Below are positions 8,742-40,571 of a DNA stretch of 64,000 nt, piece after piece (position 1 is the stretch's first letter; every line of letters begins with the position of its first letter). The DNA lies in contig JBCCAR010000003.1 of assembly GCA_039814715.1 (NCBI GenBank), positions 99,393 to 163,392 of the forward strand, in the 5' to 3' direction. A program made the translations under genes and the position numbers. Below the pieces are notes generated by a model, which ran no database searches, was not told the DNA's origin, and worked only from the letters and a program-made list of their open reading frames with translations. This stretch comes from Pseudomonadota bacterium (lineage in GTDB: Bacteria > Pseudomonadota > Alphaproteobacteria > Sphingomonadales > CAKZYD01).

Positions 8742-9068
8742 CTACCATTTGGCTTCCAAAGACATGATGCGCTTGGGCTTTAGGCCAACGCTGAGGTCTA
8801 CGTTGACAGAGCGATATTCATCGCCAAAGAGTGAATAACTCGTTTGCGTATCATTCGGCCAGCTCTCGAGATTCCGCATCACATGCAGATCAGCCAGTTG
8901 GCTGGATTGGCCCACTTTTAATTTTGAGGCTGGCAATGCCGGTTTGGGCGTGGGTTCGGGCAAGAGCCACATGGCTTTCACAGGCTGCACGAGCAGCCCA
9001 TTGGCCTGCGCGCTGAAGCACGTCAAAAGCGCGACTGACAGTCCAAAAAGTAAGTGCCTCAAGCGCAT
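8742..9068 (-). CDS. Small secreted hypothetical protein (signal peptide)
   Basis: The internal Met gives MRLRHLLFGLSVALLTCFSAQA, a classic Sec signal peptide. The mature part is about 85 aa and ends in an aromatic residue (EAKW). It lies 125 nt downstream of the TolC-like gene on the same strand. I recognise no family. Confidence 0.5.
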   Translation of the reverse strand: MRLRHLLFGLSVALLTCFSAQANGLLVQPVKAMWLLPEPTPKPALPASKLKVGQSSQLADLHVMRNLESWPNDTQTSYSLFGDEYRSVNVDLSVGLKPKRIMSLEAKW

Positions 9069-9193
9069 AAACTCCCTCCACCAAAGTTTGATGCATATTG
9101 GGGGAGGATAGCGGCGACTTGGTGGATAAGATGTGACCAAATTGGAATTTATTAATGGCAATTTGTTGAAAATTGCGCCGATTATGCAGGAGA

Positions 9194-11902: not shown

Positions 11903-12160
11903 GCGTACTGTGGTTGCCAGCAGGTATTTTTTCCCGCTGATCAACACCTGGCCAACCTATTGCGTGTTGCCACTGACACTAAACTCCAAACTCGCGCGAA
12001 AACTTCTTTACGAAATATTTAGATAAGTAAACGAAATGTAATCGTAGACCTCCGCTAAGAAATCACTTTCTAAACAGGCAAGGTAAAGGGTGAGTTAACC
12101 CTAACGTTCTCCAAATAATTTCTACAATTTTCACTATTTGGAAAGCCTGGCGGATGAAAA

Positions 12161-15100
12161 ATGGCAATTCGAAGTATTGTGTCAGTGGCGAATGGGTCTT
12201 CAATGGCTGAAGAGCAGACGGCGGGTTCACCGCCTTCAGAAGAAAATGTGCAAACAGATCAGAACGTTGCACCGCTGGCTGTTGCCGAAGTGGCAGCGGG
12301 CGGTCAGCTTGTGTTCGACTTCCCTTACGAATCGGTTGAACTTGAGTTCATCGATGTCGACGTCCTTTTTAAGTTCCCAGATGGTAGCCAAGTCCTCGTA
12401 CCAGGTCTTGGTTTGCTCGCGCTATCTGACAATCCGCCGACGATTGTGTTTGCTGGCTTTCCAATCCCGGCAGACCAGCTGCTAACCCGCGTTGGCGAAT
12501 TTACGGACATTCCCGAAGCAACACCGCCTTTGTTTAGTTCAGAAGAAACCCTGGACCCGGTGGAGGAGACAGACGATTCCGCTGAGCAGGCTGAGTTTTT
12601 GACGGCTGCTGAGCAACAGGCTCCTGGCGGCATCCTATCAGAGACAATTGAAGAGGCTGCTGCTCAAAAGGCAGTTGAAGAAAGTGAAGCGGATTCCGAC
12701 GCGGAAGAACAAAGCCGCATTATCGAGAAAATCAGCAATGAGAGCGCATCTGCTGCTGCTGCTCCGATGGACCCTGCCTCTAGCCCAGATCCCACCGAAG
12801 AGGTTGGTAGCTCGATTGCTGAACTCACGCCTTCCATTACGATAGAATTGTTCGGCGTCACAGGCCAAACAACCGAAGTCGTAGATGGCCGCACGATCTT
12901 ACGCGGCGCGGCTGCAGCGACGGGTGCTGACGAAGACCCAGCCTTCGGCGCGCAAGTTGAACGCGAACAGATTACTGGCAGTTCAGCGAGTGAGACTATC
13001 ATCGCTGATTCTGAAGTGTTAGCGCCCGAGGGTTTCACAACGCGGATTTTGCGCGTTGTCGCTGATATTCCCCAATCGGGTGTTGAAGTGACCAAGATCA
13101 CTGTTCCAACGCTTCCAGATGGCTTCTCGGTTATTAATGGTGAGCTGACGGACGCAGGCTGGGTCATCGATTTAGACGATCCCCTGGCGAATGCAGATTT
13201 TGATGTTGCAGCTGTGAACATCGGCTCCACTGCGGTCGGGTTTGATATTCAGCTGCAATATGCCATTCCCGAAGATGGGGTGACCCAAACAGAGTCAGGC
13301 TTTCTCAACGAGTTCTTTGTTCCCATTGCCTTTACCTTGAGTTCAGAAAGCGCCCAGAGCGTTTCTGTCGCTTCAGTTCAGGCGCGGATGGCGGTCAATC
13401 CGGCCGCCTCTGAAGAGGACGTCTACCTGGTTGATGAACAATCAGGCGAAGCTATTACGGTTTTGTTTGATGTACCGCCAGGCAACATCATTGATGCTGG
13501 CGCGGGCGATGACTTGATTGTTGCCGGTGCTGGGCAAGACGACATTGACGGCGGAACGGGCGAGGACCTCGTCTCCTATGAAACCTCTGACGAAAGTGTA
13601 GAGGTCAACCTAGAAAACGGCGCTGGTACAGGTGGCTATGCAGAAGGCGATAATTTCACCGGCATCGAAGGCGCCATAGGCTCACGCTTTGATGATGTAT
13701 TGCGCGGCGGAGCCGGTGATGAACGCTTTTCCGGCCGCGGCGGCGAAGACGAATTAATTGGCGGCGCGGGCGTAGATATCGCCGACTACCGCATATCTGC
13801 AGAAGCGATCACCTTATCAACAGACGGCAGCCTTGGCGCCGGCGGCGATGCGCTAGGTGATACACTTACGCAAATTGAAGGCATTGATGCCACCGACTTT
13901 AATGACGTGCTCACTGGCTCTGGCGCCAATGAAATTCTGCGCGGTTTTGCTGGCGATGACACAATCGTTGGCCTTGGCGGCGCAGACGTCCTCGACGGCG
14001 GTGAGGGCTATGACATCACCGATTACAGCGCGTCTTCTGCTGCGGTCACTGTCTTCTTGGACGGTAGGACAGGCAGCGGCGGCGATGCGGCCGGGGATGT
14101 TTTAAGCGGCTTTGAAGAGCTACGCGGTTCCGCTTTTGATGACAATTTGACGGGTGACGCCGCTGACAATTTCCTCGTCGGTGGCCTCGGCGCAGACACC
14201 ATCGACGGCGCCGGCGGGATTGATACAGTTGATTTTAGCGCTTCAGAGGAGGCCGTCACTGTCTTTATGGATGGCCGTGTTGGCTCTGGCGGTAAGGCAG
14301 AAGGCGACGTTATCACCAATGTTGAGCGTCTCTTTGGCTCAGACTTTGACGATACATTGATCGGGGGCGATGGCGAAGACAGCATCTTCGGCGGGCTTGG
14401 GGATGATGTGATCTCCGGCGGCGCTGCGGGCGATATGCTGTATGGCGGCGAAGGCTTTGATGCCGTTTCCTATGAGTTCTCTAGCGCTGCTGTGAATGTC
14501 TCCCTCGATGGCACGTCCACGGGCGGTGATGCGCAAGGCGATCTCTTTTTTGATGTTGAAGCGCTGTTTGGCTCGAACTTCAGTGACACGCTCAGCGGGA
14601 CTGCAGGCAATGATCAGCTCTCCGGCTTGGGCGGTGACGACATCCTGATCGGCGGTGAAGGCGGGGACATCCTGACAGGCGGCGCCGGGTTTGATGCTGC
14701 AGATTATTCAAATTCACGCACTGGTGTCACCGTCTATCTCGATGGCACGATCTCTGAAGGTGGAGAGGCGGACGGCGATACTCTGACTGAAATTGAGCAA
14801 GTCATCGGATCGCGCCGTGCTGACATTATAAACGGTTCGGACAGCGATGATCTTTTAGAAGGCCGGGACGGCGATGACATTCTAGAAGGTGCCAGCGGCG
14901 CTGATACTCTTGAAGGCGGAGACGGCCTCGACACCGCTCGATATGCGTCCAGTGATGTTGGTGTCTTGGTTGATTTGCTAGGCAATGCCGGCACTGGCGG
15001 TCATGCGCAAGGCGACCGACTGCAGGATATTGAAAACCTGACGGGGTCCGGTTTCGCCGATCAGTTGACCGGCTCAGCGGGAAACAACGCGCTCGATGGT

Positions 15101-18100
15101 TTGGGCGGTGATGATATTTTAGAGGGCCTCGCCGGCGCAGATACACTGCGCGGCGGCGATGGGGTTGATACGGTCACGTATGCGGCGTCTTTCGAAGGCG
15201 TGACGATCGATCTGTTTACCTCCACTGGCTTTGGCGGCCATGCTGAAGGCGACCTGATCTTCCAAATCGAGAATGTAATTGGCACCCAGGCAGCGGACCG
15301 CATTACAGGGAACGCTGAGGTCAATCAGCTTGACGGTGCTGGAGGCGATGATGTTCTCGTTGGCGGTATCGGGGCAGATGTTCTTCTCGGTGGCACCGGC
15401 ATTGATACAGCCAGCTATATTAATGCGTTAGCTGGTGTCACAGCATCTTTGGCTCTCGATGGCGGCACCGTCGGTGATGCGCAGGGCGATACGTATTCCT
15501 CGATTGAGAACTTAGAAGGCTCTAACCTTGCCGATACATTGATCGGCGACGACGATGACAACGCCTTATCGGGCCTCGCTGGCGATGATACCCTCATTGG
15601 CGGCGCCGGTGCAGACACCATCACTGGCGGCGGCGGGTTCGACACGGTTGATTTCTCCACTGAGACCGCAAATTTGATCATCCGCCTCAATGGTGATGCT
15701 TCTATTGGCGGAGAGGCAACCGGCGACCGGTTTTTTGAAATCGAACAGGTCATTTCCGGGAGCGGAGACGATCAGCTAACCGGCTCAACAGCAAATGAGA
15801 GCCTTCTCGGCGGCGACGGCAATGACATCTTGGTCGGCGGCGCTGGCGCGGACTTGCTTGATGGCGGCGCCGGCATTGATAGCGTAACCTATGCGGCATC
15901 AGCGACGTCGGTTATTCTCAATCTGGATGGCTCCCCATCGCTTGGCGGTGATGCAGATGGCGATACCATTATCAATTTGGAAATCGTCACTGCCTCAGAG
16001 TTTAACGATCAAGTGTTTGGCGCTGCCGCCAGCGAGACGATCTTTGGCGGAGCCGGTAACGACGATATTTATTCTGGCTTGGGCGCTGACATTCTGGATG
16101 GCGGGCTGGGATTTGATACGGCTAATTATAGCCTGTCAGGCGCTGCCGTCACAGCAAGCCTTGGCGGCGGGCCTGGCTTTGGCGGAGATGCGCAAGGCGA
16201 CACGCTCACTGGGTTCGAGCGGCTTTTTGGTTCTGCATTCGGCGATACGCTTATTGGCGGGGACAGCGATGATACGCTAGAAGGCGGCGCTGGTGATGAC
16301 GTGCTTGCAGGTTTTGGCGGCGCAGACAACCTTGTCGGCGGGGCTGGCCAAGATATTGCCGATTATAGCGCATCTGGGTCTGCGGTTTTTGTCCGATTGG
16401 ATGGGTCATTATCGTCCGGCGGCGATGCAGCTGGCGATACGCTCAATAGCATTGAAGGCGCCATTGGCTCCGTCTTTAACGACAATATCGTTGGTTCCAT
16501 TAACGACGAGATTATTCGCGGCGGTGCTGGCGACGACACGCTTGATGGCGGTCTTGGTGCGGATGAAATCATTGGCGGCGCCGGCATTGATACACTCGAT
16601 TACCGCGGTAGCTCGGCTGCTATCTCCATCCGTTTAGACGGGTCACTCAGTACAGGGGGATTTGCTGAAGGCGACCAAGTCAGCGAAGTAGAGATCGTTT
16701 TTGGATCAAGCTTTGGCGATACGATCGTTGGCGAAACGGCAGCCGAAACACTCGATGGCGGCCTTGGAGATGACATCCTCACAGGGGCTGGCGGCGATGA
16801 CATTTTGCGCGGCGCAACGGGTGAAGATACTTTAGAGGGCGGTCAAGGCGCTGACTTGCTTGAAGGCGATGAAGGAGATGACACTCTTAGCGGCGGCGTA
16901 GGCGCTGACGTCTTAGACGGCGGCGGCGGACTTGATACGGTCACCTACATAACATCTGGCCAGGGCGTAACGGTGGCTTTGGATGGCAGCGCTGGTGCTG
17001 GCGGTGATGCGCAAGGTGATACCTACATTCAGATCGAACGTGTCATTGGCTCAGATTTTGCTGATAGCCTCAGTGGCAGCAGCGACAATGATGTTCTAGA
17101 AGGCGGGGCGTCGAACGATACTCTGGCAGGCCTCATTGGGGCCGATACGCTGCGCGGTGATGATGGCGACGATATCCTTATTGGCGGTCTTGGCGCTGAT
17201 ACTCTAGATGGCGGCGCTGGTATTGACTTGGCCGATTACAGTGGGTCAGCCGCTGGGATCATCGTTTCAACCACAGGTGCACCTGGCGGCGGCGGCGATG
17301 CTGCTGGCGACTCCCTAATTTCAATTGAGACTGTGCTTGGGTCCACTTTCGCGGATGTTATTTCGGGCAGCACGGCAGATGAATTGCTGCGCGGTAACGA
17401 TGGTGATGATGTCTTAGCTGGCGGCGCTGGCGCGGATGATCTGCGCGGCGATAGCGGTTTCGATACCGTCGATTATACCGCCTCCAACGCAGCTGTTGTT
17501 GTAGACATGTTCAACGACACTGCCACTGGCGGCCACGCTGCGGGCGATGTTTTTGACTCCATCGAAGCGGTTACCGGTTCGAGCTTTGATGACGTCTTAA
17601 GCGCAGACACCGGCGCTGGCGCAACGCTTGATGGCGGAGACGGCGACGATGATCTGCGGGGGCGCGACGCAGAAGACACTCTGCGCGGCGGGGATGACAA
17701 CGATATCCTCCAAGGCTTTGGCGGCGCCGATGATTTAGACGGCGGCGACGGTTTTGATACCGCCACTTACGCAAATTCCGCCTTTGCCGTTCGTGCGTTC
17801 TTGGATGGCACAACTGGCGCAGATGGCGACGCTGCTGGCGACCGCTTGACGAGTATTGAGCGTCTCGTTGGCTCAAACCTAGACGATACGCTGACCGGCG
17901 GAACCAGTGATGATACATTAGAAGGCGGGCAAGGCGCTGACTTACTCCTTGGCGGCCAGGGCGTGGATACGCTGCTTGGCGGCCAAGGCGATGACCAGCT
18001 CAATGGCGGCCAGGGCGGGGACACCATTGACGGCGGCGCAGGTGTTGACCTTCTCGATTATTCTGGATCAACCCTCGGCGTTACCGTTAACCTCGATGGC

Positions 18101-21100
18101 AGCGTGTCGACCGGCGGCGACGCACAGGGCGATATTGTTACCAATGTAGAGCAGGTCCTTGGCTCTTCCGTTGATGATGTTTTGACTGGCACCGCTGCCG
18201 ATGATTTGCTTGACGGCGGGTTTGGCAATGATCAGCTGAACGGTGAAGGCGGGGTCGACACTTTGCTCGGCGGTCAGGGCGATGACGTGCTTGATGGCGG
18301 CTTGGGCGGCGATATTTTAGACGGCGGTGCAGGCTTTGACCGCATTTCATATGCGCAATCAACCCAAGCTGTGCAGGTGGTTTTGGATGGCACAGTCTCC
18401 ACAGGCGGCCAAGCCCAAGGGGACCAAATTTCGGACGTCGAGCTGATCATCGGGAGCGATTTCGATGACGTGATGACAGGCGTTGCCAACGATGAGGTCT
18501 TTGAAGGCGGCGATGGCGACGACTTATTGATTGGCAACGCGGGGACAGATACCCTGCGCGGCCAGGACGGCAACGATACCCTCATTGGGGGCGAAGACGG
18601 CGACACGCTGGAAGGCGGCGCTGGCATTGATACAGCTGACTATTCTGCATCGACGGCTGCGGTGACCATTGACCTCAATGGGACTTTGGTTGCCGGCGGC
18701 GATGCCAATGGGGACACCTTAAGCAGCATCGAGCGCCTCATTGGCACCAGCGCGGATGATATTCTGCGCGGCATCAATGTTGATGAAACGCTCATCGGGA
18801 ATGACGGCCGCGATACCCTTGAAGGGCGCGGCGGGGCCGATGTGCTTCAGGGCGGGGAAAACAATGACACCCTTATTGGCGGTACCGGCGCAGATACGCT
18901 CGATGGTGGCGCAGGGCTCGATACCGTCACTTACGCCGACGCCGCGGGCAGCGTTACTGTCTTCTTGGACGGGTCCTTGGGCGCAGGAGATGAAGCCCTG
19001 GGTGATACTCTAACCGCAATTGAAATCCTCATCGGCTCTGACTTTGACGACGTGTTGACAGGCTTTAACGCAGCAGAGCAGCTCGAAGGCGGCGACGGCG
19101 ATGACGTGCTCAGCGGCGGCGATGAAGATGATGATTTGCGCGGCGGTATCGGCCAAGACACCTTGATCGGCGGACGTGGTGCAGACGCTATCGATGGCGG
19201 AGATGGCATTGATACCGTCGACTACACAGGCGCGGAAGGCGGCGTTATTGCGCGGCTCGACGGCGTTGCTGGCAGTAATTTTGAAGCGCAAGGTGATTTG
19301 ATTACCAACGCTGAACGCCTGCTGGGCTCGGCGTTTGATGATGAGTTAGTCGGCAGCGGTCAGAATGACCAGTTAGAAGGCAATGCCGGGGCCGACTTAT
19401 TGCGCGGCGCAAGCGGCGATGATGCCCTCTTCGGCGGTCTTGGCGCTGATACGCTTGAAGGCAGTATCGGGAACGACACGCTAGACGGCGGCGCAAACGA
19501 TGACATCCTGCGCGGCGGCGCAAATGGGGATGTGCTGCGCGGCGATGCAGGTTTTGATACAGCAGATTACTCAGATTCGGCCTCGCGCATTATTGTCAGC
19601 CTGGATGGGTCTGCGGGCCTAGGCGGCGATGCACAAGGTGATACACTCTTTGATATCGAGCGTGTGATTGGCACGTTTGACGATGATGAAATCACCGGTA
19701 TTGGCGGCAATGAGACGCTTGAGGGCGGCCTCGGCAATGATGACTTAGAAGGCGCTGGCGGCGACGATATTCTGCTTGGCGGCGGCGGCGACGACAACCT
19801 GTCTGGCGGCGCTGGTGCAGACGCCCTTGATGGCGGTGATGACATTGACACGGCTGACTATTCCGGTAGTTCCGTTGGTATCCAGCTCACACTAGATGGC
19901 GTGACAGTCGGGCAAGGCGGCGACGCGCAAGGCGATACGCTGATCAACATCGAACGTCTTTTTGGTTCCGATTTCGACGATGTCCTTACTGGCTTTAGCT
20001 TGAATGAAATTCTCGAAGGCGGGGACGGCGATGACATCATCAGTTCCTTAGGCGGTACTGATACCATCCGCGGCGGCGATGGCAATGACACTCTTCGCGG
20101 CGGCGCCGATGCCGATATCATTGATGGCGGCGCGGATTTCGATACCGTGCTGTATGACACATCAGACGCCGGTGTGACCGTTAATCTCAACGGCGTTGCC
20201 GGTATAAACGGTCATGCGCAAGGCGATGTGCTTAGCCTCGTTGAACGTGTTGTTGGGTCAGATTTCGCTGATACGCTTAATGGCTTTAACGCGGCTGATG
20301 TTCTCGAAGGCGGCGCCGAAGACGATGTCATTTCAGGTGGCGCAGGAAATGACACTCTGCGCGGCGATGCTGGCGATGACCAGATCGACGGCGGCGACAA
20401 TGATGACACCATTGATGGCGGGACTGGCGACGACACGATTACCGGCAGCGACGGGACGGATGCCATCGATGGCGGCGACGATTTCGACACCATTGATTAC
20501 AGCACACAAACGACAAATCTGTTCATCTATCTAGATGGAACTGCCAATGCTGGCGGCGATGCCACCGGCGATACGCTATCAAATATCGAACAGGTCTTTG
20601 GTGGGCTACTGAACGATACGATTATCGGTACGGCAGAAGACGAAGTCTTAGAAGGCCGGGCCGGCATGGACCGCCTAGAAGGGCGCGGCGGCGACGACAT
20701 CCTGCGCGGCGGGTCTGAGCAGGACACCCTTATTGGCGGCGCTGGCGCAGACACGCTTGTCGGTGGCGGCGATACAGATACGGCTGATTATAGCGGCGCT
20801 GGCGGCGGCGTGACGGTACGTACGGATGGGATGGCCGGCACGGGCAGCGATGCCGAAGGCGATACGCTTGAGACAATTGAAGTTGTCATTGGGTCTGACT
20901 TTGCAGACACGTTGATCGGCAACGATACATTCGCGACAACGCTAGAAGGCGGCGATCTCAACGATGTCCTCACCGGCGGCGCACTCAGCGATACGCTGCG
21001 CGGCCAAGATGGCGATGATACGCTGATCGGGCTTGCTGGCTCAGACACGCTTGAAGGCGGTATGGGCTTTGATACGGTCGATTATTCCGCATCATCAGCC

Positions 21101-27100: not shown

Positions 27101-30100
27101 CAAGGCGGCGGCGGTATTTTCGATGGCGGCGGTGGTGTCGACATCTTGGAATTCAACCGGTTCGATGTTGCTGGCGTTGATGTCGTCATGGACGGCACCA
27201 CGGTTGGTGTGGGCGGCTTTGCCGACGGAGCGACCTTTGAAAACTTTGAACGTATATCGCTAACCGCATTTGATGACAGCTACGTTGGCTGGGCGGGCGA
27301 TGAACAAATTGCTGGTGCACAAGGCGCGGACGATATCGACGGTGGAGACGGCTTCGATTTTGTCGTCTTCCTTGATGATATCAATAGCGGCGGCGGGGCC
27401 AGCACAAACTTCGCTTTAGACGGTCGGATAACCGCCACCGGCCGAGCTGTGGGTGACACCGTAACCAACGTTGAAGGTGTTATTGGTTCCAATAACGACG
27501 ATATACTCGGCGGTGACAGCGGTGATAACGAGCTTCGTGGATCGGGTGGAAATGACACTCTACTCGGTGATCTGGGCGCCGATGTTTTGGATGGTGATAA
27601 CGGCGAAGATACGGTCGACTACTCACTTGCGGGCGCACAGATTAACGTTGCGCTTGGCGTTGGCGGAGTGGGCGACATTGCCGATGGCGATACCTACAGC
27701 GAAATTGAAAACGTTATCGGCTCAGGGTTTGATGACGCCCTGCAAGGGACGTCAGACGCAAACAACCTGAACGGCGGCGAAGGCGACGATATCTTAATCG
27801 GGCTAGAAGGCGGTGACCTCTTGGTTGGCGCTGGCGGTTTTCATGACGTTGCGAACTATAGTGCCTCTAATGAGGGCATCACAATTAGCATGGACGGCTC
27901 TTTCGGACTAGGCGGCCATGCAGCGGGCGACCAGCTTCTCGGTGTCGAGGATGTCATCGGGTCCATCTACGGCGACGATATTACCGCAGATGGCAACATC
28001 AACAGCCTTCAAGGCGGTGATGGCAATGATTTCCTTCAAGGCAACAATGGCGGCGACGTCCTTGATGGCGGGAACAACTTTGATGTCATTCGCTATGAAG
28101 GCTCCGATGCAGCTGTCACTGTAGACCTCGACGCGCAAACCGCCTCAGGCGGCCATGCAGACGGCGATACACTCATCTCAATCGAAGGTGTCTACGGCTC
28201 GGCCAATAACGATATCTTCTCAGGCTCATCCCGAGATGAAGATTTCCGCGGTGAAGCAGGTGACGATAACATTGCAGGGTCTGGCGGAGCAGATGATATC
28301 CGCGGCGGTGAGGATACAGATACCCTTACCTATTTGGCTGCTGGCGCAGGCATCACGCTCACGCTTGATGGCACAACCGTTGGCACGGGCGGCGATGCAG
28401 CAGGCGATACCGTTCGCGAAATCGAAATCCTGTTTGCCACGGACAACATCGATAACATTACCGGCGTCGCCCTCAATGAAACCCTATATGGCCGCGGCGG
28501 CGCCGATGCACTCGATGGTGCTGGCGGCGACGACATTCTGATTGGCGGTGCAGGCGGGGATACGCTGATCGGCGGGGGCGGAACGGATACAGCTGATTAT
28601 AGCGGCTCTGCTGCAATTCAAATCGTTCTCGATGGGTCTACGCTGGGCATTGGCGGTGATGCAGCCGGTGACGTGATCAGCGGTGTTGAGACGATTATCG
28701 GTACTGATTTCAATGACGTCGTCACGGCGACGGTCTTACAAAGCACTTTGCGCGGTGAGGGCGGTGATGACCAACTCACCGGCAGTAATCTAGATGATGT
28801 GCTGCTTGGCGGCGCCGCGCAGGATTCGCTGTTTGGCGGCGAAGGCGATGATGACCTGCAAGGCGAGGAAGGCAATGACATCCTAGAAGGTGGCATCGGC
28901 GAAGATAGCCTGGATGGTGGGTCTGGGAATGATACAGCGAGCTATGCCACTGCTGGAAGCGGGGTCGCGGCTAGCATCGCGGCGGGCGGCGGAACGCTTG
29001 GTGATGCCAATAACGATACCTTCACGGACATCCAGAACCTGACTGGTTCCGGTTTCGATGACACCCTCACCGGGGACAGCAACGACAACACCTTAACGGG
29101 CCTTGCCGGCGTCGATACTCTAGATGGCGGCCTTGGCAACGATACTATTAACGCCGGCGCAGGTGACGACATTATTATCGCCAGCGTAGGCGGCGATAAC
29201 ATTAACGGCGGCGATGATAACGATACCGTCGATTATACCGCCTCTGATGCGTTTACGATTACCATCGGTACTGGTTCAGGTACTGGCGGGATTGCCCTTG
29301 GTGATACGCTGATCGATGTAGAGATCATCCTGGGCGGCGCGCAAGGCGATAACATCACCGGCGATGGTGACAACAATACGCTGACCGGCAATGGCGGCGA
29401 TGACATCCTCGACGGGGCTGGCGGCGATGACTTGCTGCAGGGGAACGCGGGCGCTGACCAATTCACTGGAGGCACTGGTACCAACACCATCGAAGGCGGC
29501 GCGGGCACCGATACGATTTTCGGCGGTACCGGCACAGACCTGATCGATGGCGGCGGAGAAGTCGATACAGTTGATTATTCTGCAGACACTGCAGGCATAA
29601 CGATTGCCATTGATGGCATGGCGGGCAGTGGCGGCCTAGCAGCTACAGATACACTGACAGACGTTGAAAATATTATCGGCGGCAGCGGCGTTGATACGCT
29701 TACGGGAGACGGTGAAGACAATGTGCTCACTGGTAATGGCAACGCAGATATTCTAAGTGGCCTAGGCGGCAATGACACCTTAGAAGGCGGGGCCGGGAAC
29801 GATACCCTGACTGGCGGGACGGGCACAAACACGCTCAATGGCGGTCTAAACGATGACACCTTCACCGGCGGCACCGGAGCTGATCTGATCGACGGTGGTA
29901 GCGGTTTCGATACGGTCGATTATTCAGCGGACTCCGGCGACAATACCATCACGATCGGCGGCGGCGCTGGAACTGGAAGCTTTGCCAGCAACGACACACT
30001 TGCGGGCGTGGAACGAATTTTGGGCGGAACGGGCGTCGATAACCTGACAGGTGATGGCAACGACAACACGCTGATAGGCAATGACGGCAATGACGTTCTA

Positions 30101-33100
30101 ACCGGCATGGGCGGAACCAATACGCTTCAAGGCAATGACGGGGAAGATACATTCATTGCCGGCGCGGGCGCAGATAACATTGATGGCGGCGGCGATGATG
30201 ACACTGTTGATTATTCTCTCTCAACCGCGATCAACATTACGATTGGCAGCGGCACCGGCGCTGGCGGTCTAGCAGCAAATGACCAGCTAACGGACGTGGA
30301 AAGTATCATCGGCGGGGCTGAAGGCGATACCATTACGGGTGATGGCGATGCTAACACGCTGACCGGCAATGGCGGGAATGATATCTTAGACGGCGCGGGC
30401 GGCAGCGATACGCTGGAAGGTGGCGCGGGAGAGGATACGCTGACCGGGGGCGCGGGGACAGATACCATAAACGCAGGCGGCGACAATGACACCATCATTG
30501 GCGGCGCGGGCGCCGATGACATTGATGGCGGTACAGGCATCGACACGGTCGATTATTCGGCTGACACGACCGGTATTACGATTGCGCTAGATGACAATCC
30601 TGGCTCGAATGGCTTGGCTGCAGGCGACACGCTGTTTGATGTGGAAAACATCATTGGCGGATCGCAAAACGACACGCTGACAGGGGATGGCGAACAAAAT
30701 ACGCTGACCGGCAATGATGGGGATGACACCCTCGATGGCGGCGCAGAGGACGATACGCTCATCGGGAACGACGGCGCTGATACGTTTATCGCAAGTGCTG
30801 GCGCCGATAGCGCAACCGGCGGCGCGGGCATTGATACCGCCGATTATTCAAGCGAGTCCTCCTTTGCAATTACGGTCGGCGGCGGTGCTGGCACGGGCTC
30901 AGCCCTTGGCGATACACTCGCTGGTATTGAAATCGTCCTTGGCGGCGCGGGCGATGATACTATTGTTGCAGACACCAGCCTTAATTCCACACTTACCGGC
31001 AATGGCGGCATCGATACGCTCACCGGTGGCTCAGGTGACGACACCTTAAACGGCGGCGCTGGGGATGATGTCCTCAATGCTGGCGCAGGTATCAACGTCA
31101 TCAATGCCGGCCTCGACGATGACACCATTACAGGCGGTGTTGGCCGTGACACCATCGACGGTGAGGGCGGTTTTGACACCGTCGATTACACGGGTGACTT
31201 TGGTGACAATGTCATCGTGATCGGTGGCGGTTTGGGCACAGGTAGCTTTGCCTCGAATGACCAGCTGTCCAACATCGAACGCATTCTTGGCGGCGCGGGC
31301 GCAGACACGCTAACAGGGGACAGCGCTGATACTACCTTTGAAGGCAATGACGGCAATGACGTCCTGACCGGCGGTGCGGGTGACAATACGCTCAATGGCG
31401 GTGATGGCGATGATACATTCATCGGCGGCACAGGTAACGATACTATTGATGGTCAAGGCGATATCGATACCGTTAATTATTCAAACGATACTGCTGGTGT
31501 GACTGTTGTTTTGGATGGATCGCTTTCCAGCGGCGGCCTGGCGGTCGGTGACCGGCTCTCCAATATAGAAAACTTGACGGGCGGTACTGGCGGTGACGAC
31601 GTAACCGGCAATGCTCTAGACAATATCTTACTCGGTGGTGACGGCGCTGATACGCTGCGCGGTGAAGGCGGAAATGACACACTGACGGGCGGCGCTGGGA
31701 CAGACACGATCACAGGCGGCTCGGGCACCAACACAATAAGCGGCGGCGCAAATGTAGATACGATTATTGGCGGCACTGGTACCGACCTCATTGATGGCGG
31801 TGACGGTGATGACATTGTCGACTACAGCGCTGATAGCGGTGACAATACAATCACGATCGGCGGTGCGGCAGGGACCGGCAGCTTTGCGAACACCGATACG
31901 CTAACGGATGTGGAGGAACTGCGCGGCGGTTCGGGCGTCGATACATTTACTGGCGACGGCGACGACAACACTCTGATCGGCAATGCCGGCAATGACGTGC
32001 TCGACGGCGGTGCTGGCAATGATGATGTGCAGGGCGGAGATGGCGATGACCGCATTGTCGGCGGCGTCGGCACAAATACGCTCGACGGCGGCACAACCGG
32101 AGAGGTCAACGGCGACACAATTGATTATACCGCTATCACTGCGGCCTTAAACGTGAATTTAGCAACCAATGCGACGAGCGGTGCAGCAGCCAACGATACG
32201 ATCTCGAATTTTGAGAATTTCCTTGGCGGAAGCGATGTCGACACTGTGACCGGCACATCTGGCGCGAACCGTATTGAAGGTAATGGCGGCGCAGATATTT
32301 TAGATGGTGCGGGCGGGGATGACACGATCCTCGGCGGTAATAATGCCGATACCATTACCGGCGGCACTGGCACCAACACGCTCAGCGGCGGCGGCGGCGC
32401 TGATACCTTTATTGCAGGCACCGGCATTGACTTGATCGATGGCAACAACGGTCAGGATACTGTGGATTACACCGCAGATACCGCCGGTATTACGGTCGCC
32501 ATTGATGGCAGTCAGGGCGTTGGCGGTTTGGCCGAAGATGATACCCTTACGAACGTGGAGACGATCCTTGGCGGCTCCGGCAATGACGATATTACCGGCG
32601 ATGGTGATCAGAACATCCTGCAAGGCAATGACGGTAATGATGTTTTAGATGGCGGCGCTGAGGCGGACCAGCTCTTTGGCGGCGCTGATCAAGATGACCT
32701 CTCCGGCGGAGACGGCAATGACCAGCTCTTTGGCGGCACGGAAGATGATATCTTCCGCGGTGATGCTGGCAGCGATGTCATCGATGGCGGCGGCGGCATT
32801 GATACCGTTGACTACACGGCTTCAGGCACCTTTACAATCACCATTGGCACCGGATCGGGGACAGGCAGCCTTGCGCAAGGTGATACCCTCACCGAAGTTG
32901 AAATCATCAATGCCGGCGGCGGCGATGACACGATTACAGGCGATACCAACGACAACACGCTGAATGGCGGCGCCGGCGATGATACACTCAGCACCGGTGC
33001 CGGCGGGGCGAATACGCTCAACGGCGATGGCGGCGATGATACGGTCATCATTCTCGCAGCGTCTTCCGGTAATACGGTTGATGGCGGCACTAATACAGCG

Positions 33101-36100
33101 GTTGGTGATACGATTGATCTGTCCAACTTCTCTACCGCAGCAACGCTGAACATTTTGTCTGGCGCGGTGGGTGGTGCGTTGGCTGCCGAAACTGTTGTTG
33201 CTAGCAGCTTTGAGAACATTATCGGCGGGACCGCCGGAGATACCCTGACCGGCAGCGCAGCAAGTAACATCATTTCAGGCGGCGCAGGCGGTGATGTCAT
33301 CAGCGGCGGTGCCAGCGGCACGAATACGCTAAGCGGTGAAGGCGGCGATGACACATTTACCGGGGGCACCGGTATTGATTTGATCGATGGCGGTCTTAAC
33401 GTTGACACCGCCGATTATGCCGCAGACACAGCAGGCATGACCGTCGTGCTCGATGGGTCCGTGTCTTCGGGCGGCCTGGCAGCGAGCGACACATTTACGA
33501 ATATCGAGAACTTCATCGCCGGTACTGGCGTTGATGACATCACTGGTAACAGCCTCGATAACACTCTTATTGGCGGCGCAAACAACGATCAGCTCTCCGG
33601 CCTTGGCGGGAATGACAACCTGCAGGGCGGCGACGGCGATGATACGCTGACCGGCGGCTCGGGCATCAATACGCTGACTGGCGGCAACAACAACGATACC
33701 TTTATCGGTGGATCAGGCACCGACAGCATGTTCGGCAATAGCGGGCGCGATACTGTCGACTATACCGCTGAGAGCGCGGACATCACCCTCCAAATCAATG
33801 GCGGCGCGGCAAGCGGCGGCATAGCTGCCGGTGACACCATCGATTCTATCGAGATCATTCTGTCCGGTTCAGGCAACGATACCTTAACCGGCGATGCGAG
33901 CGATGATGAAATCTATGGCAATGACGGTAATGACACCATTGACACCCGCGGCGGCAACGACAGCGCCTTTGGCGGCGACGGCAATGACCGTATTTTTGGC
34001 GGCCAAGGCACCAATACGCTCAATGGTGGCAATGATATCGATTGGATCGACTATTCTGGCGAGACCGTTGCTCTATCGGTTAACCTCGGCACCAATGCGA
34101 CCGCTGGAGCGGCGGCCAACGATACGATTTCGAATTTCGAAAACGTCCGCGGCGGGACCAATGATGATGTCCTGACAGGATCTTCGGCAGCAAACGTTAT
34201 CCAGGGCAATGATGGCGATGACACCATTGATGCAAGCGATGGCGGCGGCGACACCATTGATGGCGGCGCGGGTGAAGATAACATCACCTTGGGCTCTGGT
34301 ATCAATACGGTCGATGCAGGCGGCGATAACGACACCATCATTCTTGGCGCGGGGACTGACAGTGTCCAGGGCGGGGATGGGGTCGATACTGCCGACTATT
34401 CCAATGATACAGCCGGCATCACCATCACACTTGGCAGTGGGACAGGCTCTGGTGGTCTCGCTGCTGGCGACGAACTGCGCGATGTTGAAGATCTAACCGC
34501 GGGCTCGGGCGCGGATGATATCACTGGCGATGGCGGCGATAACACGATCATTGGGAATGAAGACAATGACACCCTCGACGGCGCAGGCGGCAATGATGAC
34601 CTGCAGGGCGGCGATGGTGATGATACATTGACCGGCGGCGCTGGCACCAACACGCTAAGCGGCGGCGCAAATGCAGATACCTTTATCGCGGGCACCGGCG
34701 CTGATGCGATAGATGGCGGCACCGGCACCGACATTGTAGATTACACTGCAGACAGTGATGGTATCACCATCACAATCGGAACAGGTACCGGCACCGGTGG
34801 TCTCGCTGCGGGTGATACCCTGGCCGCTGTCGAGACCATCCTCGGCGGCACGAGCGGCGATGCAATCACAGGCGATGGCAACGACAACCGCCTGGAAGGG
34901 CGCGGTGGGTCAGATACCTTGAACGGTGCGGGCGGTAACGATGTCATCCTGGGCGGTGATTTGAATGATATCATCACCGGCGGCGCAGGTACCAACACAC
35001 TTTCAGGCGAAGGTGGCAACGACCGTTTCGTAAGTGGGTCGGGCGCGGACGCCATCGATGGCGGTACAGGAATTGATACTGCAGATTACACAGGGTCGAC
35101 CGCCATAAACATAACAATCGGCGGCGGTGCTGGCAGCGGCGGTGACGCGCTCGGCGATACGCTGGTCAACATCAACATCGTCGAAGGTGGCAGCGAGGGT
35201 GACACTGTTACGGGCGATGGAAATGGCAACACGCTGCGCGGCAATGGCGGCAATGACATATTGGACGGCGCTGGCGGCATCGATACGCTTGAAGGCGGCG
35301 CAGGCGATGACACACTCACCGGCGGAACGGGCGCAAACACGCTCGATGGCGGCGCAAACGACGATACCATGATCGCTGGCACTGGCGCGGACGCTTTTGA
35401 TGGCGACACCGGCACCGACACTGCCGACTATAGCGCCGACACAGCTGGCATCACGATTACCATCGGCACTGGCACTGGCACCGGCGGGCTCGCCGCTGGC
35501 GATAGCCTCACGGCCGTTGAAATCATCGAAGGCGGCAGCGGCGTTGATACGCTCACGGGCGATGGCAATGATAATACGCTCTTGGGTAATGACGATAACG
35601 ACGTGCTGGATGGCGCAGGCGGCAGTGATGATCTGCAAGGCGGCGATGGTGACGACACTCTGACAGGCGGCGCTGGCACGAATACGCTCAGCGGCGGTAA
35701 CAACGACGATACCTTTATAGCAGGGACCGGGACGGATAGCTTTGACGGCGGGTCTGGCTTTGACACGGTCGACTACACTGGCTCTGCCGCGATTGACATC
35801 AACCTTGGCGGCTCCATGAACACAGGCGGCTTTGCTGCCGGCGACACCTATAGCAGTATTGAGCGCGTTCTCGGCTCAGCCTTCGGCGATACGATCAGTG
35901 GCGGCGGTCTGGATAACACCTTTGTCGGTAACGGCGGCAATGACACCCTCAATGGATTTGGTGGGGCCGACACATTGGACGGCGGAGCGGGGCAAGACAC
36001 ATTAAATGGCGGTGAAGGCAGCGATATCCTCACCGGCGGCGCAAATAATGATACCTTCATTGCCAGCGAAGGCGGCGATGATATTGATGGCGGCGATGAC

Positions 36101-38578
36101 GTGGATACGGTTGATTATTCAGCCGCGAGTGCTGGCATTACTATTACAATTGGCACTGGTACAGGCAGCGGCGATGCCCTTGCAGCAGGCGATCAACTGA
36201 CAAACGTTGAAAACATTATCGGTGGGTCCGGCAATGATGTGATCACCGGCGATGCAAGCAACAATGTAATCGACGGCACCAGTGGCGCTGATGATCTTTA
36301 TGGCGGCGATGGGAATGACACGCTTTATGGCGCGCGCGGCAATTGGACTGTCGATCTTTTCGGCGGCGACGGAGATGATACGTTTATCGTCTTTGCTGGC
36401 GGTGGAACGGAGAACATCACGCCTGGTGCGGGCACTGACACAATGGTGCTTAGCAATGAAGTTGCGGGCACCGATTTTGGCCTGGATTCAAATTTTGGAC
36501 AAACCGGAACATTAGAAATCGTTGATGGCTCGGCCTTAGGTGGAACAGCGCGCTTGTACGAAGGCCCTGGCGGTAATGCGCGAAACTGGGATTTCTCTGC
36601 AGTCACATTAATTCAGATTGACGAGATCGTCGGCAGTAACAGCGGCGACGATATCATCGGATCAGCGGGGAACGATGAGATTTTTGGTCTGGGCGGCAGC
36701 GATACCCTTGAAGGCGAGGACGGAAACGACACCCTTGAAGGCGGTGACGGTTCCGATACGCTCAACGGTGATGCTGGCGATGATATCCTGGATGGCGGCA
36801 CAGGCAACGACGTAGATACCCTCGATGGCGGCGAAGATTCTGACACCTACAACATCTACGGCGATGGTGTTGCGGACACCATTTCCGACAGCGGTTCCTC
36901 TGGGACTGACACGATTGTCTTGCTGTCTGGAACAGGAACAGCTTTCGAACTGGCAAATACCTTCAGCCTCGCGTCAACAGGTATTGAAGCCATTGACGGC
37001 TCGGCTGTTGTTGGTGAAACCTTGCGCGTCCAAAACACTGGATCGGCGGTAAATTGGGACTTCACGGGCATAAGCCTGACTGGGGTCGATGCATTAGAGT
37101 TTGGTGGGCAGGATGACGACTTTACGGCGTCTTCAGGTGATATCACGCTTAACGCAGGGAGTGGGTGGAATGATATTATCACCGGCTCGGGTGATGACGA
37201 CATCACAACGACTGGCTCCGGCAGCAATACAATCAATGTTGGCAATGGCAATAATACAGTCACCACAGGAAGCGGCGACGATACCATCACTAGTGGTATC
37301 GGGAATGACATCATTGTCAGCTCGAGCGGCTGGAACAACATCACCACTGGTGCTGGCGATGACGACGTAACAACGGGTGGGTCCGGCAATAACACGATAA
37401 ATACCGGTGACGGCACAAATGTCGTCTCCACGGGCAGCGGCGATGATACCATCACCTCCGGCGCGAATGACGATACGATTTCGTCTAGTGGTGGCTGGAA
37501 CGATATTACAACCGGCGGCGGTAATGATGATGTGACGATAACCGGGTCAGGCAACAACACGATTAATGTCGGGAGCGGCCTTAACACAGTTTCAACTGGC
37601 GGCGGTGATGATGATATCACCGCTGGAGCGGGGAACGACACCATAACATCCACAAATGGTTGGAACGATATCTCTGCTGGCGGCGGCGATGACGAAATCA
37701 CAATCGGCGGCTCAGGAAACAACACCATCGACGCTGGCGAAGGCACGAACATCATCTCGACTGGCAGCGGCGATGATACCATTACCAGTGGCACTGGCGA
37801 TGATGATATTACCACCACGGGTGGCTGGAACGACATCATGTCCGGCGGCGGCAATGACGACATCGTTGTCGGCGGCTCAGGAAACAACACTGTCGACGCG
37901 GGTGCAGGAAACGACGTTGTTGCGGCGGGAAGCGGGGATGACACAATCAACGGCGGCGCAGGCGATGACACCATCAGCACCGGCACTGGCACAAACACTG
38001 CGAATGGCGGGGACGATAATGACACCATTAACGGCGCATCCGGCAACGACACCATAAATGGCGATGCTGGCGATGATATCCTGAATGGGTCAACCGGCAC
38101 CAATACCGTGCGCGGCGGCGCGGGCGATGATCAGATTAGCAGCTTCGGTGGATCCGATAGCCTCTTCGGCGACGCTGATGACGACGAGTTCATCCTATTT
38201 GAAAGCCACATTAACGGTGATCTGATTGATGCTGATGGCGGGACGGGTATTGATACCGTCCGGGTGTTCAACAACTCTGGTGATGTGAGCGAGAGTAACC
38301 TTGTTGCCGCGCTAACAAATGTTGAAGTCATTGACCTTCAAGCAGCGAATGTGGGTTCTAGCTTGAGCCTAGATGGCAGCCAGGTTGCTGGTATGACAGA
38401 TGCTGGCGATACGCTCAGCTTGTTCATTGATGGGAACGATACCATCACCATCGATGAGCCGACGGATAACTACACGACCAGCATCGATGGCACTGAGACC
38501 ACCTATAGCATCTTTACTGATGCCACGCGCACCACGCTGGAAGCGACACTAATCGTCGATACTGCTGCCGCTGCCTAA
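12161..38578 (+). CDS. Giant RTX-repeat (hemolysin-type Ca2+-binding) T1SS substrate / putative adhesin, 8,805 aa
   Basis: It is a single uninterrupted ORF of 26,418 nt. The protein has a ~444-aa non-repeat N-terminal region and then thousands of residues of GGxGxDxL/I nonapeptides organised in higher-order modules. The C-terminal ~135 aa resemble the LapA/VCA0849-type T1SS target domain ([64 protein letters not shown]). It is highly acidic, and I saw no Cys on reading the translation. TolC-, HlyD- and ABC-type T1SS genes flank it. Confidence 0.95.
13493..28930 (+). repeat. Coding repeat regime A inside the giant gene: ~70-80-aa modules
   Basis: The module is about G(F/I/V)DT(A/V)DYSxSxxxVTVxLDGxxGxGGDAxGDxLxxIExxxGSxFxDxLTG, followed by 2-4 GGxGxD nonapeptides. 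The DYS anchors recur every 210-240 nt (for example ~14020, 14230, 14470, 14700, 14940, 15180, 15415). Span divided by period suggests roughly 60-70 modules, which I did not count individually. The boundaries are approximate. Confidence 0.8.
28931..36260 (+). repeat. Coding repeat regime B inside the giant gene: ~97-115-aa modules
   Basis: The module is about [114 protein letters not shown]. The VDY anchors fall near 29230, 29572, 29920, 30205, 30550, 30840, 31185, 31475, 31820, 32120, 32465 and 32810, and continue beyond. One module counted by hand is 115 aa. Span divided by period suggests about 21 modules. The boundaries are approximate. Confidence 0.8.
37163..37987 (+). repeat. Coding repeat regime C inside the giant gene: five exact-period 55-aa (165-nt) units
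   Basis: The Trp codon of the GWN(D/N)I motif occurs at 37166, 37331, 37496, 37661 and 37826, exactly 165 nt apart. One unit reads [55 protein letters not shown], which is six xGxGxDxIT-type nonapeptides plus one residue. Confidence 0.9.
38171..38575 (+). other. C-terminal T1SS secretion/target domain of the giant protein
   Basis: This non-repeat C-terminus follows the last RTX blocks. [14 protein letters not shown]...[46 protein letters not shown]...[12 protein letters not shown] resembles the TIGR03661-type (VCA0849/LapA class) C-terminal target domain as I recall it. Confidence 0.6.
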
Positions 38579-39117
38579 GCCTGTGGCTTAAGCCAGCCGC
38601 GGTAGCGTACGATTTGCCCTGCCAGTGGAAGGGAGATCGCAACATCGAAGTGGAACAGTCCGTTTTGAGCGGTCTCGCGCGTATCGCTGCGCGGTAACAG
38701 CCAATGCGGTAGCGCTATACCCAAAAGCCAGGCGCGTTTAACAGGAAAGAGAAGCGCTTTATTGTCTTCGCGCAGGCCAAGCTCAGCGCGCAGCAGTCCA
38801 AAGCGCTCAAACACTTTCAGCGGCGGACCCTCCTTCAGCGAGAGATGAGAACGAAAGGTCTGTCCGCCAAAATCGCGCACCCAAGTTTCGCCTTTGGGCG
38901 TTTGCGTGATGATGACGGTGACAGGAATATCGCTGCCCGACTTTGGAAAGCCAATGACGGCTGAAATAATGTGGGACAATAGGGAGGTGCCGCGATCGAC
39001 GCGCGCTTTGCCTTCAAGGCGCAATTGCCCTTCAATGCTGTGGACTGCGCGAACAGCGGCTGGCAAGGCTTGCCACGAAGACCCTAAGAATCGCTGAAAA
39101 AGAGGCTGCTTACCCAT
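38575..39117 (-). CDS. DUF4166 domain protein
   Basis: 180-aa ORF. The pattern [17 protein letters not shown]...GKARVDRG...[28 protein letters not shown]...LPHWLLPR...[22 protein letters not shown] matches my memory of DUF4166. It lies 42 nt downstream of the hlyD-like gene on the same strand. Its stop overlaps the giant gene stop (CTAA). Confidence 0.6.
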
Positions 39118-40473: not shown

Positions 40474-40571
40474 GATTGCTAAAACCCTAAGCGTTAATCC
40501 TAAGGGAGTTTTAACGCTTGAAGGGCTAACAAAGCGTTGAGACGGGATCAAACGAGTGCGGATTGCAGCTC

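Follow-up and report, generated by a model that had tools for sequence, protein, structure and literature searches.

The window analysed here, a stretch of 64,000 nucleotides from a bacterium of the order Sphingomonadales (GenBank assembly GCA_039814715.1, contig JBCCAR010000003.1, positions 99,393 to 163,392), contains a single giant gene (12161-38578, plus strand) for a repeats-in-toxin (RTX) protein of 8,805 residues and 859 kDa. We regard it as fairly probable that this protein is a substrate of type I secretion whose body folds into one long, calcium-stabilised β-roll rod, and which is retained on the cell as a signal-controlled surface fibre. The evidence for this reading lies in the repeat structure and predicted fold of the protein, in the predicted topology of its N terminus and in the genes around it. 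A complete type I secretion set, consisting of an ATP-binding cassette (ABC) transporter, a periplasmic adaptor and a TolC-like channel, flanks the giant gene, and alongside it lie genes for a MotB-like, a MotA-like and a PilZ-domain protein, referred to below as the trio.

An intact giant gene of extreme composition

An earlier reading made from the DNA letters alone (the sequence-only reading) had described an uninterrupted 26.4-kb open reading frame (ORF), and this was borne out, with 8,805 codons running to one terminal stop. It had also described the product as cysteine-free and dominated by Asp, Gly and Thr, in agreement with our count of 0 Cys in 8,805 residues and a composition of 21.2% G, 15.4% D and 10.2% T. 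Lys is almost excluded as well (5 of 8,805 residues, or 0.057%, all of them before residue 713), although Arg is retained at 1.7%, and the 1,709 acidic against 156 basic residues leave a net charge of about −1,550. Since neighbouring proteins in the window average 3.9% Lys and 0.7% Cys, the depletion of both residues is specific to the giant gene. Lys is also scarce in the closest relative, an ortholog encoded on a 6,971-nt contig of a Sphingomonadales metagenome-assembled genome (L001; 3 of 1,752 residues), and in a more distant relative (L007; 2 of 1,791, with 0 Cys), in contrast to the 47-95 Lys of more distant family members. Avoidance of acylation or of protease attack can be offered only as guesses at the cause. 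The protein has no hydrophobic segment, the highest 19-residue Kyte-Doolittle mean being 1.46. Comparison with the ortholog suggests that the true start codon may be Met15 instead of Met1; the stretch preceding Met1, GGCGGATGAAAA-ATG, is likewise acceptable as a start context. Some 30 antisense or out-of-frame ORFs of 100-415 codons lie inside the gene (e.g., 36856-38103 on the minus strand), and these are by-products of repetitive, GC-rich codons rather than genes.

One module type along the whole body

A hidden Markov model (HMM) built from one repeat unit and iterated against the giant protein finds 78 full-length copies of a single module type between residues 469 and about 8,060. Each module combines a 43-residue core (consensus D-x-x-D-Y-S-x-S-x-x-x-V-T-V-x-L-D-G-x-x-x-x-G-G-D-A-x-G-D-T-L-x-x-I-E-x-x-x-G-S-x-F-x-D-x-L-x-G) with a variable number of RTX nonapeptides, and the modules fall into length classes of 79, 97 and 115 residues (± 1-3). 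In 73 of the 78 the length equals 79 residues plus or minus an even number of nonapeptides (about 79 + 18k residues), and the modules therefore vary by whole β-roll turns. The nonapeptide family PF00353 (GGxGxDxUx) matches every segment past residue 450 with E-values of 1e-15 to 1e-91, which bears out the classification as an RTX protein, and regular expressions count 167 nonapeptides in strict form and 419-651 in relaxed form. The repeats begin at about residue 441-468, consistent with the non-repeat N terminus of about 444 residues reported earlier.

The sequence-only reading had divided the body into three regimes, with a repeat grammar that changes twice. This division does not hold, as the single HMM recovers one module type in all zones, and the zones are variants of that type, not separate grammars (Table 1). 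Its first regime, of modules of about 70-80 residues from 13.5 to 28.9 kb, survives only in part: the 70/79-residue modules of zone A1 are confined to residues 469-1476 (nt 13565-16588), followed by modules of 97/98 residues over 16589-25552 (zone A2, with six exceptions of 115 residues and one of 79) and by an irregular zone over 25553-28930. The periods of this irregular zone are 136, 111, 88, 115, 80, 76, 79 (four times), 89 and 115 residues, and its cores are the most degenerate of all. The second regime, from 28.9 to 36.3 kb, was recovered as zone B, whose modules of 97/114/115 residues have a shortened, Thr/Gly-rich core; the TGDGxDNTLTGN-type hallmark noted there gives 11 regular-expression matches inside the zone and 1 elsewhere. 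The two NWDF(S/T) modules described beyond zone B are likewise present, 156 residues apart at residues 8142 and 8298 (nt ~36584 and ~37052), and this motif is missing or altered in relatives. So is the five-unit block with an exact 55-residue period, in which GW recurs at residues 8335, 8390, 8445, 8500 and 8555 and for which Tandem Repeats Finder reports a period of 165 nt at the DNA level.

Age and reality of the array

Pairwise identity between cores averages 43-49% within zones and 38-44% between zones, with a maximum of 79% inside zone B. The nearest relative of a module lies within its own zone for 91% of modules in zone B (29% expected), 77% in zone A2 (38% expected) and 46% in zone A1 (16% expected), and for 0% in the irregular zone. 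Identity within zone B peaks at module offsets of 3, 6 and 9 (0.54, 0.535 and 0.52 against about 0.47), and zone B is therefore built on a super-repeat of three modules (~326 residues). The separate amplification episodes proposed for the segments are thus supported by the nearest relatives in zones B, A2 and A1 and by the three-module super-repeat, with the qualification that these amplifications are ancient and not recent.

Repetitive genes are often misassembled, and relatives of the giant gene in draft genomes are fragmented or split (L001, L003), so that the gene could in principle be a product of repeat collapse or expansion during assembly, or a decaying pseudogene. We consider this extremely improbable. 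The frame holds 8,805 codons without a stop, and its direct-repeat DNA families are all 60-80% identical, with no two copies above about 80% over 40-300 nt; Tandem Repeats Finder detects nothing beyond short arrays of 27-nt units and a single array of 165-nt units at 75%. Because DNA copies are at most ~80% identical, there is no repeat that an assembler could collapse. Furthermore, the independent metagenome assembly L001 encodes a protein that is 73% identical across the N-terminal domain and that repeats the length series of modules 1-15 exactly (70, 79, 70, 79, 78, 79 eight times, 115, 97), with positionally matched modules 65-89% identical as against a mean of 47% for non-matching pairs. 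In L007 the C-terminal tail is kept almost residue for residue. On the strength of the divergent repeats and the order conserved in the ortholog we reject an assembly artefact; the ORF is real. The sequence comparisons further indicate that the module array is old and that its modules are conserved individually. In L003 (10001-31553) gene calling splits the giant gene into two overlapping ORFs of 4,720 and 2,516 residues, the second with cadherin-like matches, and the single 7,183-residue protein of a sister strain points to a frameshift or sequencing error in this repetitive gene.

A predicted continuous β-roll

When modules 29-31 were modelled with AlphaFold2, on the basis of 59 aligned database homologs, they formed a β-roll without interruption, with a predicted local distance difference test (pLDDT) score of 97 and a predicted template modelling (pTM) score of 0.92. 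Three-residue strands recur in it every nine residues, and each core contributes one short loop and a helical turn. Continuity of the β-roll is thus predicted with high confidence, and the fibre-like shape suggested by the sequence-only reading is supported over three modules. The best matches to the model in the Protein Data Bank (PDB), found with Foldseek, are the RTX blocks of CyaA and the β-rolls of serralysins (7usl, 7rah, 6sus, 1go7, 1kap), and RsaA is among the weak matches. No immunoglobulin (Ig)-like family was detected in the body by family scans, the module HMM or the three-module model.

RTX nonapeptides fold on calcium binding into β-rolls, and type I substrates are exported unfolded with the C terminus first. 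In textbook β-roll geometry 18 residues make one turn of 0.48 nm, by which estimate the 78 modules, with about 390 turns, would form a rod of about 190 nm. Zone B and the 55-residue block (28931-37987) are rich in G-T-G-T-N/D and T-x-T-like turns, and the calcium-bound, β-helical ice-binding domain of MpIBP (3p4g) is among the weak fold matches of the module model; a flat Thr/Asn binding face on this part of the protein is conceivable.

Terminal domains and the protein family

The N-terminal 450 residues were modelled with AlphaFold2 from a 37-row alignment (overall pLDDT 75.5). The predicted topology is a small folded β domain of 78 residues (residues 38-115, block pLDDT 86-94), which contains the motif DVDxVxxFPDG and is the best-conserved part of the family alignment, followed by a disordered linker of about 100 residues and by a β-rich domain (residues 220-445 in the model) that leads into the first RTX turns, within which residues 341-360 have block means of only 53-63. 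Such an arrangement would fit a module that plugs the TolC-like channel, but neither in fold nor in sequence does it match any known retention module. The first 440 residues match nothing in Pfam, NCBIfam or PDB sequences (phmmer), and word-indexed protein searches with the N-terminal 450 and C-terminal 140 residues found nothing. An exhaustive HMMER search with the N-terminal domain (~400 residues), by contrast, retrieved 130 cluster representatives (58 at E ≤ 1e-10), in all of which the domain stands at the protein N terminus.

Sequence comparison thus suggests that this domain defines a family of giant proteins. Its representatives include proteins of 5,885, 5,875, 5,536, 5,508 and 5,007 residues, and the cluster members include Sphingomonas proteins of 7,183 (MDR6116697.1) and 6,985 residues annotated as 'Ca2+-binding RTX toxin-like protein'. 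Most representatives of at least 1,500 residues carry the same modules, with the 79/97/115 spacings in the closest; they contain 0-11 Cys, and many share the tail motif described below. The core-plus-nonapeptide module also occurs commonly in proteins no longer than ~500 residues. The size of the window protein had been called unusual even among giant adhesins, which is hard to maintain when proteins that share its N-terminal domain and modules are as long as 7,183, 6,985 and 5,885 residues, although at 8,805 residues it is the longest that we retrieved in the family (next 7,183). We found no report of an experimental study of any member of this N-terminal family, within an incomplete coverage of the literature.

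The last 140 residues are 28-35% identical to the extreme C termini of five family members (P0121, P0124, P0139, P0167 and P0179), and the tail motif Y-x-(F/Y)-x-D...T-T-x-x-A-x-L-x-V is common to the large members compared. From this alignment the C-terminal domain is presumed to be the secretion signal region. The domain, of ~135 residues, also occurs internally in some relatives (P0139 residues 3128-3269 and 3636-3770; several sites in P0124), and it is therefore a reusable module and not only a terminal signal. The sequence-only reading had assigned this end to a LapA/VCA0849-like secretion domain, an assignment that we could not reproduce: the last 140 residues have no NCBIfam match at E ≤ 10 and only a chance-level match in Pfam, and the last 206 match RTX-type models only. 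The VC_A0849 subclass model TIGR03661 gave no match, its presence in the NCBIfam release used not having been checked separately.

Secretion genes and the MotB-like, MotA-like and PilZ trio

The neighbourhood confirms the type I secretion context that had been proposed, with genes for a TolC-like channel, an HlyD-type adaptor and an LssB-type ABC transporter adjoining the giant gene. TIGR03375 aligns over the full length of the ABC transporter with a score slightly under its cutoff of 693 bits. Downstream of the giant gene, the ABC, MotB-like, MotA-like and PilZ genes form a tight row on the plus strand. The listed starts of the divergent adaptor and ABC genes are 11 nt apart (39160-40563); as the models begin at residue 54 of the adaptor and residue 24 of the ABC transporter, the true starts probably lie further inside each gene. 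In the TolC-like protein the similarity is confined to residues 515-910 of 917. Residues 1-514 comprise a signal peptide and a low-complexity, Pro/Ala/Gln-rich extension of ~480 residues with recurring A-L-E/K-R-P-like motifs; this N-terminal part of ~500 residues has no family match, and the TolC homologs of loci L003-L006 (483-556 residues) are without it.

In the MotB-like protein a coiled linker joins an N-terminal transmembrane helix (NHWPGFVDAL...) to a C-terminal domain that resembles OmpA. Its transmembrane segment, NHWPGFVDALSTIVMV, contains an Asp, and PRK09039 matches its N-terminal part with an E-value of 1e-16. In the MotA-like protein, which carries the invariant motif GLIGTFxGLMxTVGSVG, the channel portion is followed by a C-terminal, coiled-coil-like tail of ~320 residues; the best PADLOC match is ZorA1, followed by ZorA3 (E 3e-5). 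A phmmer search against PDB sequences returned nothing useful for either protein. The start codon of the PilZ gene abuts the MotA-like stop codon, and both c-di-GMP (cyclic diguanylate) motifs, RxxxR and DxSxxG, are intact in the encoded protein. An exact copy of this protein was retrieved from a single 4-kb Logan contig only, and look-ups of identical copies of the ABC transporter and of FlgE retrieved no contig.

The same cassette flanks family members in L003 (Sphingomonas sp. SORGH_AS_0950), L004 (an ENA metagenome scaffold) and L005 (GCA_947374425.1), with pairwise E-values between window and L003-L005 homologs of 2e-66 to 2e-19. A metagenome scan with an alignment of the four MotA-like proteins yielded 204 relatives, and the best 80 loci were annotated with custom HMMs, a set that did not cover flagellar genes. 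In 55 of 59 loci the gene immediately upstream of the MotA-like gene is the MotB-like one, and in 57 of 58 the gene immediately downstream of it encodes PilZ. A component of type I secretion accompanies them in 33 of 40 loci. Of the 21 loci with long flanks, 12 contain a giant ORF that has the N-terminal domain of the family or RTX modules. A common gene order is MotB-like, MotA-like, PilZ, TolC, giant gene. In many unrelated loci the trio accompanies a type I secretion system and frequently also a giant family protein. A search of the literature, of incomplete coverage, found no description of a cassette that joins PilZ, type I secretion, MotA/ExbB and RTX genes, nor of a PilZ partner for any stator pair linked to secretion, nor of the protein family itself.

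Table 1 Features of the giant gene and its cassette (nucleotide positions in the window; aa, residues of the giant protein)
Feature	Position	Strand	Basis
TolC-like outer-membrane channel, 917 aa, divergent from giant gene	9194..11947	-	Pfam OEP E 3.6e-50; TIGR01844 243.7 bits (cutoff 225)
Giant RTX gene	12161..38578	+	Single ORF, 8,805 aa
Small folded β domain, candidate plug/retention element	12272..12505 (aa 38-115)	+	AlphaFold2 block pLDDT 86-94
Acidic Pro/Ala/Glu-rich linker, predicted disordered	12515..12811 (aa 119-217)	+	pLDDT < 50
β-rich domain leading into first RTX turns	12818..13483 (aa ~220-441)	+	pLDDT > 90 outside aa 341-360
Zone A1: modules 1-13, periods 70/79 aa (core + 3-4 nonapeptides)	13484..16588 (aa 442-1476)	+	Module HMM
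Zone A2: modules 14-43, usually 97/98 aa (core + 6 nonapeptides)	16589..25552 (aa 1477-4464)	+	Module HMM
Irregular zone: modules 44-55	25553..28930 (aa 4465-5590)	+	Module HMM
Zone B: modules 56-78, 97/114/115 aa, three-module super-repeat	28931..36337 (aa 5591-8059)	+	Module HMM, self-comparison
Two diverged non-canonical modules with NWDF(S/T), RTX turns between	36338..37162	+	Sequence motifs
Five Thr/Asn-rich units, exact 55-aa period, each starting GWN(D/N)I	37163..37987	+	Motif spacing, Tandem Repeats Finder
Final canonical RTX nonapeptides	37988..38155	+	PF00353, module HMM
Family-specific C-terminal domain, ~140 aa, presumed type I secretion signal region	38156..38575	+	Family alignment
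HlyD-type periplasmic adaptor	39160..40551	-	TIGR01843 340.6 bits (cutoff 208.65)
LssB-like ABC transporter	40563..42731	+	TIGR03375 635 bits; Pfam ABC_membrane + ABC_tran
MotB/SiiA-like protein, 279 aa	42804..43643	+	Transmembrane Asp; PRK09039; Pfam OmpA below cutoff
MotA/ExbB/ZorA-like channel protein, 556 aa	43750..45420	+	PADLOC ZorA1 E 5.7e-8
PilZ-domain protein, 165 aa	45421..45918	+	RxxxR (RSLDR), DxSxxG (DVSAGG)

Neighbouring genes

A DUF4166 gene (38575-39117, minus strand) lies downstream of the adaptor gene and is convergent with the giant gene, the two stop codons overlapping by 4 nt; the related loci L003-L005 lack it, and it is not counted in the system. The interval from mnmA to the TolC-like gene (7426-9161, minus strand) holds genes for a 378-residue protein of the 2-oxoglutarate-Fe(II) oxygenase family and for a 139-residue protein without a family match. 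A VTT/DedA-family membrane protein is encoded near the giant gene both in the window (46996-47613, minus strand) and in L006 (23063-23644). Further downstream, three GT4-family glycosyltransferase genes and a nucleotidyl-transferase gene (52298-57140) probably constitute a surface polysaccharide locus. Flagellar genes (fliF, flgE, flgD and fliK; 60-6083, minus strand) adjoin the cassette in the window, as do a flagellin gene and a che operon in L004 (25083-34250) and L005 (19722-28877). This adjacency may recall the reported link between SiiAB and CheM, or it may be coincidence.

Comparison with known systems

The closest precedent is SiiAB with SiiE of Salmonella pathogenicity island 4 (SPI4), which to our knowledge encodes the only stator-like pair studied in a type I secretion system. 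Both loci encode a giant type I substrate with ABC, adaptor and TolC-like genes and, alongside, a MotB-like protein (here with a predicted transmembrane Asp and OmpA-like domain) and a MotA/ExbB-like protein. They differ in that SiiE consists of 53 Ig-like domains, whereas the window protein consists of β-roll modules; in the PilZ partner, for which we found no counterpart reported in SPI4; in the long coiled-coil tail of the MotA-like protein; and in the host, here apparently an alphaproteobacterium of environmental origin. SiiA, a MotB-like protein with an Asp13, binds peptidoglycan; jointly with SiiB it conducts protons, and adhesion through SiiE requires both, the use of the proton flow being unexplained (10.1101/641415). 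SiiE itself shifts between release and retention (10.1101/2021.05.14.443827), and SiiAB is counted among the 5:2 motors (PMC12204202). A phmmer search with the 279-residue MotB-like protein against all PDB chains gave no significant match, the presence among them of the SiiA periplasmic-domain structure (10.1101/641415) not having been confirmed. As for the PilZ partner, FlgX, a PilZ-family protein, is described as binding flagellar stator units (PMC11725899).

A second point of reference is the LapA type of adhesin (LapA, MpIBP, FrhA, BapA), whose members are also giant, acidic, Cys-poor type I substrates with C-terminal RTX repeats and an LssB-type ABC transporter. Like the window protein, they have at the N terminus an element that precedes a linker, and in LapA this part holds the protein in the TolC-like channel. 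In that type c-di-GMP decides retention; here the link, if real, would run through PilZ and the stator-like pair. The two also differ at the C terminus, where the VCA0849-type model is not matched here, and in the stalk: that of RTX adhesins is described as an extender of tandem β-sandwich repeats (PMC7493085), in contrast to the ~7,600 residues of β-roll in the window protein.

In sequence the window protein belongs with the 'calcium-binding protein' family of Sphingomonas and other Alphaproteobacteria (MDR6116697.1; SMc04171-family repeats), which has the same N-terminal domain, 79/97/115-residue modules and C-terminal tail motif, and, in Sphingomonas sp. SORGH_AS_0950, the same gene neighbourhood. 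The window protein and its closest relatives are far more Lys-depleted than the rest of this family, and the NWDF and 55-residue Trp blocks that it carries are lineage-specific. With the RTX regions of Bordetella CyaA and the serralysins it would share, according to the model, the calcium-binding parallel β-roll of GGxGxDxUx nonapeptides; in those proteins, however, blocks of 5-40 nonapeptides sit on a catalytic or pore-forming domain, whereas here the β-roll is the whole body and no such domain is present. Zorya systems, finally, resemble the trio in combining a MotA-like channel that has a long tail with a partner that has a peptidoglycan-binding domain (OmpA-like here). The gene order here is B then A, and the pair is consistently found with genes for type I secretion, for PilZ and for a giant RTX protein; genes of the ZorC/ZorD type were not detected, and no PADLOC ZorB model matches the 279-residue protein. 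Both the genes present, with a ZorA-like match alone, and their neighbours, type I secretion and PilZ genes, led us to reject a Zorya defence system.

A possible mechanism and its alternatives

We envisage the following sequence of events. The polypeptide would be exported unfolded, C terminus first, through the ABC/HlyD/TolC channel. Once outside, its nonapeptides would bind calcium and fold one turn after another, giving a stiff and strongly acidic fibre of about 0.2 micrometres. The domain at residues 38-115 and the linker of ~100 residues would stay behind as a plug or tether in or under the TolC-like channel, keeping the fibre on the cell surface as an adhesin or spacer. Its contact end would be formed by the distal blocks rich in Thr, Asn and Trp, which comprise zone B, the two NWDF modules and the 55-residue units. 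The MotB-like/MotA-like pair, anchored to peptidoglycan and driven by protons as in SiiAB, would control whether the fibre is held or released, and PilZ would couple this control to c-di-GMP in the way that YcgR, a PilZ-family protein, acts on the flagellar stator. More tentatively, the trio as a whole may be a c-di-GMP-gated, proton-driven control unit for type I-secreted megaproteins, in which PilZ, once bound to c-di-GMP, engages the long cytoplasmic tail of the MotA-like protein and so switches the unit between hold and release, or tension, of the β-roll fibre; we put this forward as a possibility worth pursuing and not as the expected outcome.

A number of observations weigh against a retained, signal-controlled fibre. 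The similarity to SiiA and SiiB extends only to the level of the MotAB/ExbBD/ZorAB superfamily; the Pfam OmpA score of the MotB-like protein (23.4 bits) is under the cutoff of 27.2, the MotA_ExbB match of the 556-residue protein (E 0.004) is below its curated cutoff, and the PilZ motifs are not all canonical in L003-L005. In 9 of the 21 long-flank metagenomic loci there is no giant gene within 10 kb of the trio. Foldseek found only weak, generic β-sandwich matches for the N-terminal model and no known retention module, and neither LapG nor LapD is encoded among the window ORFs scanned, a scan that left aside three ORFs beyond 57.4 kb, and the two could be elsewhere in the genome. The rod length derives from textbook β-roll geometry and not from model coordinates, and expression, localisation and calcium binding of the giant protein are predictions. 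No recognisable ligand-binding domain was found in it, and for this reason, of the fibre-like surface adhesin that the sequence-only reading had proposed, the fibre-like shape is supported by the β-roll model and 'adhesin' remains an inference.

The main rival is a protein that is fully released and serves as a calcium-dependent matrix, S-layer-like or calcium-buffering, with the MotAB-like unit merely assisting the export of a long substrate. We hold this to be unlikely, if still to be taken seriously. Release is frequent among RTX proteins, S-layer proteins of the RTX type are known (RsaA being among the weak fold matches), and nothing in the sequence proves retention; the scan for LapG/LapD and the N-terminal fold search, as given above, are further points in its favour. 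A protein with a net charge of this size, and with calcium sites predicted in the several hundreds, would be suited to binding ions or to cross-linking a matrix. A freely released protein, however, would have no obvious need for a folded N-terminal domain and a long disordered linker that are conserved in the family, and SiiAB, which alone among analogues of the accessory pair has been studied, has its effect on adhesion and retention and not on bulk export. A further alternative is a surface-motility or force apparatus in which proton flow moves or tensions the fibre, comparable in principle to GldLM-SprB gliding or to the giant SwmB in Synechococcus swimming. The MotA-like protein has a ZorA-like long coiled-coil tail, PilZ proteins regulate stators, the cassette adjoins flagellar or chemotaxis genes in the window, L004 and L005, and MotA/MotB-type units are force generators in every studied case given in PMC12204202. 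Against this, no track, rotor or gliding-type component was seen, the type I channel offers no known route for transmitting movement, and the flagellar adjacency is not universal, being absent in L003 and L006, which together make such an apparatus improbable.

RTX repeats next to a type I secretion system also invite comparison with a pore-forming cytolysin or bacteriocin, and the NCBIfam model RTX_toxin does match in part. These matches cover the repeat block only, at 190-230 bits against a cutoff of 1,000, and the protein has no hydrophobic pore-forming segment, no HlyC-type acyltransferase among the ORFs scanned around its gene, and only 5 Lys, all within the first 712 residues. A cytolysin was rejected for want of the hydrophobic domain, the acyltransferase and the Lys, and appears very improbable.

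Significance

Taken alone, the giant protein stands at the extreme of a family that is annotated but unstudied, and it is the conserved PilZ/stator/secretion cassette that most merits follow-up. Studied giant surface proteins of type I secretion have Ig-like stalks; the N-terminal family described here has a β-roll stalk that grows by whole turns, a natural long rod that calcium could switch. Only for LapD/LapG is it understood how a cell settles whether such a protein is retained or shed, and the use that SiiAB makes of proton flow is unexplained. The widespread cassette joins a SiiAB-like pair, a PilZ protein predicted to bind c-di-GMP and giant substrates, so that the hypothesis is genetically testable in culturable Sphingomonas. 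If it is true, the trio would be a second, mechanistically unrelated solution to the task that LapD/LapG performs for LapA, and its reading as a control unit would give a testable function to the SiiAB class of accessories.

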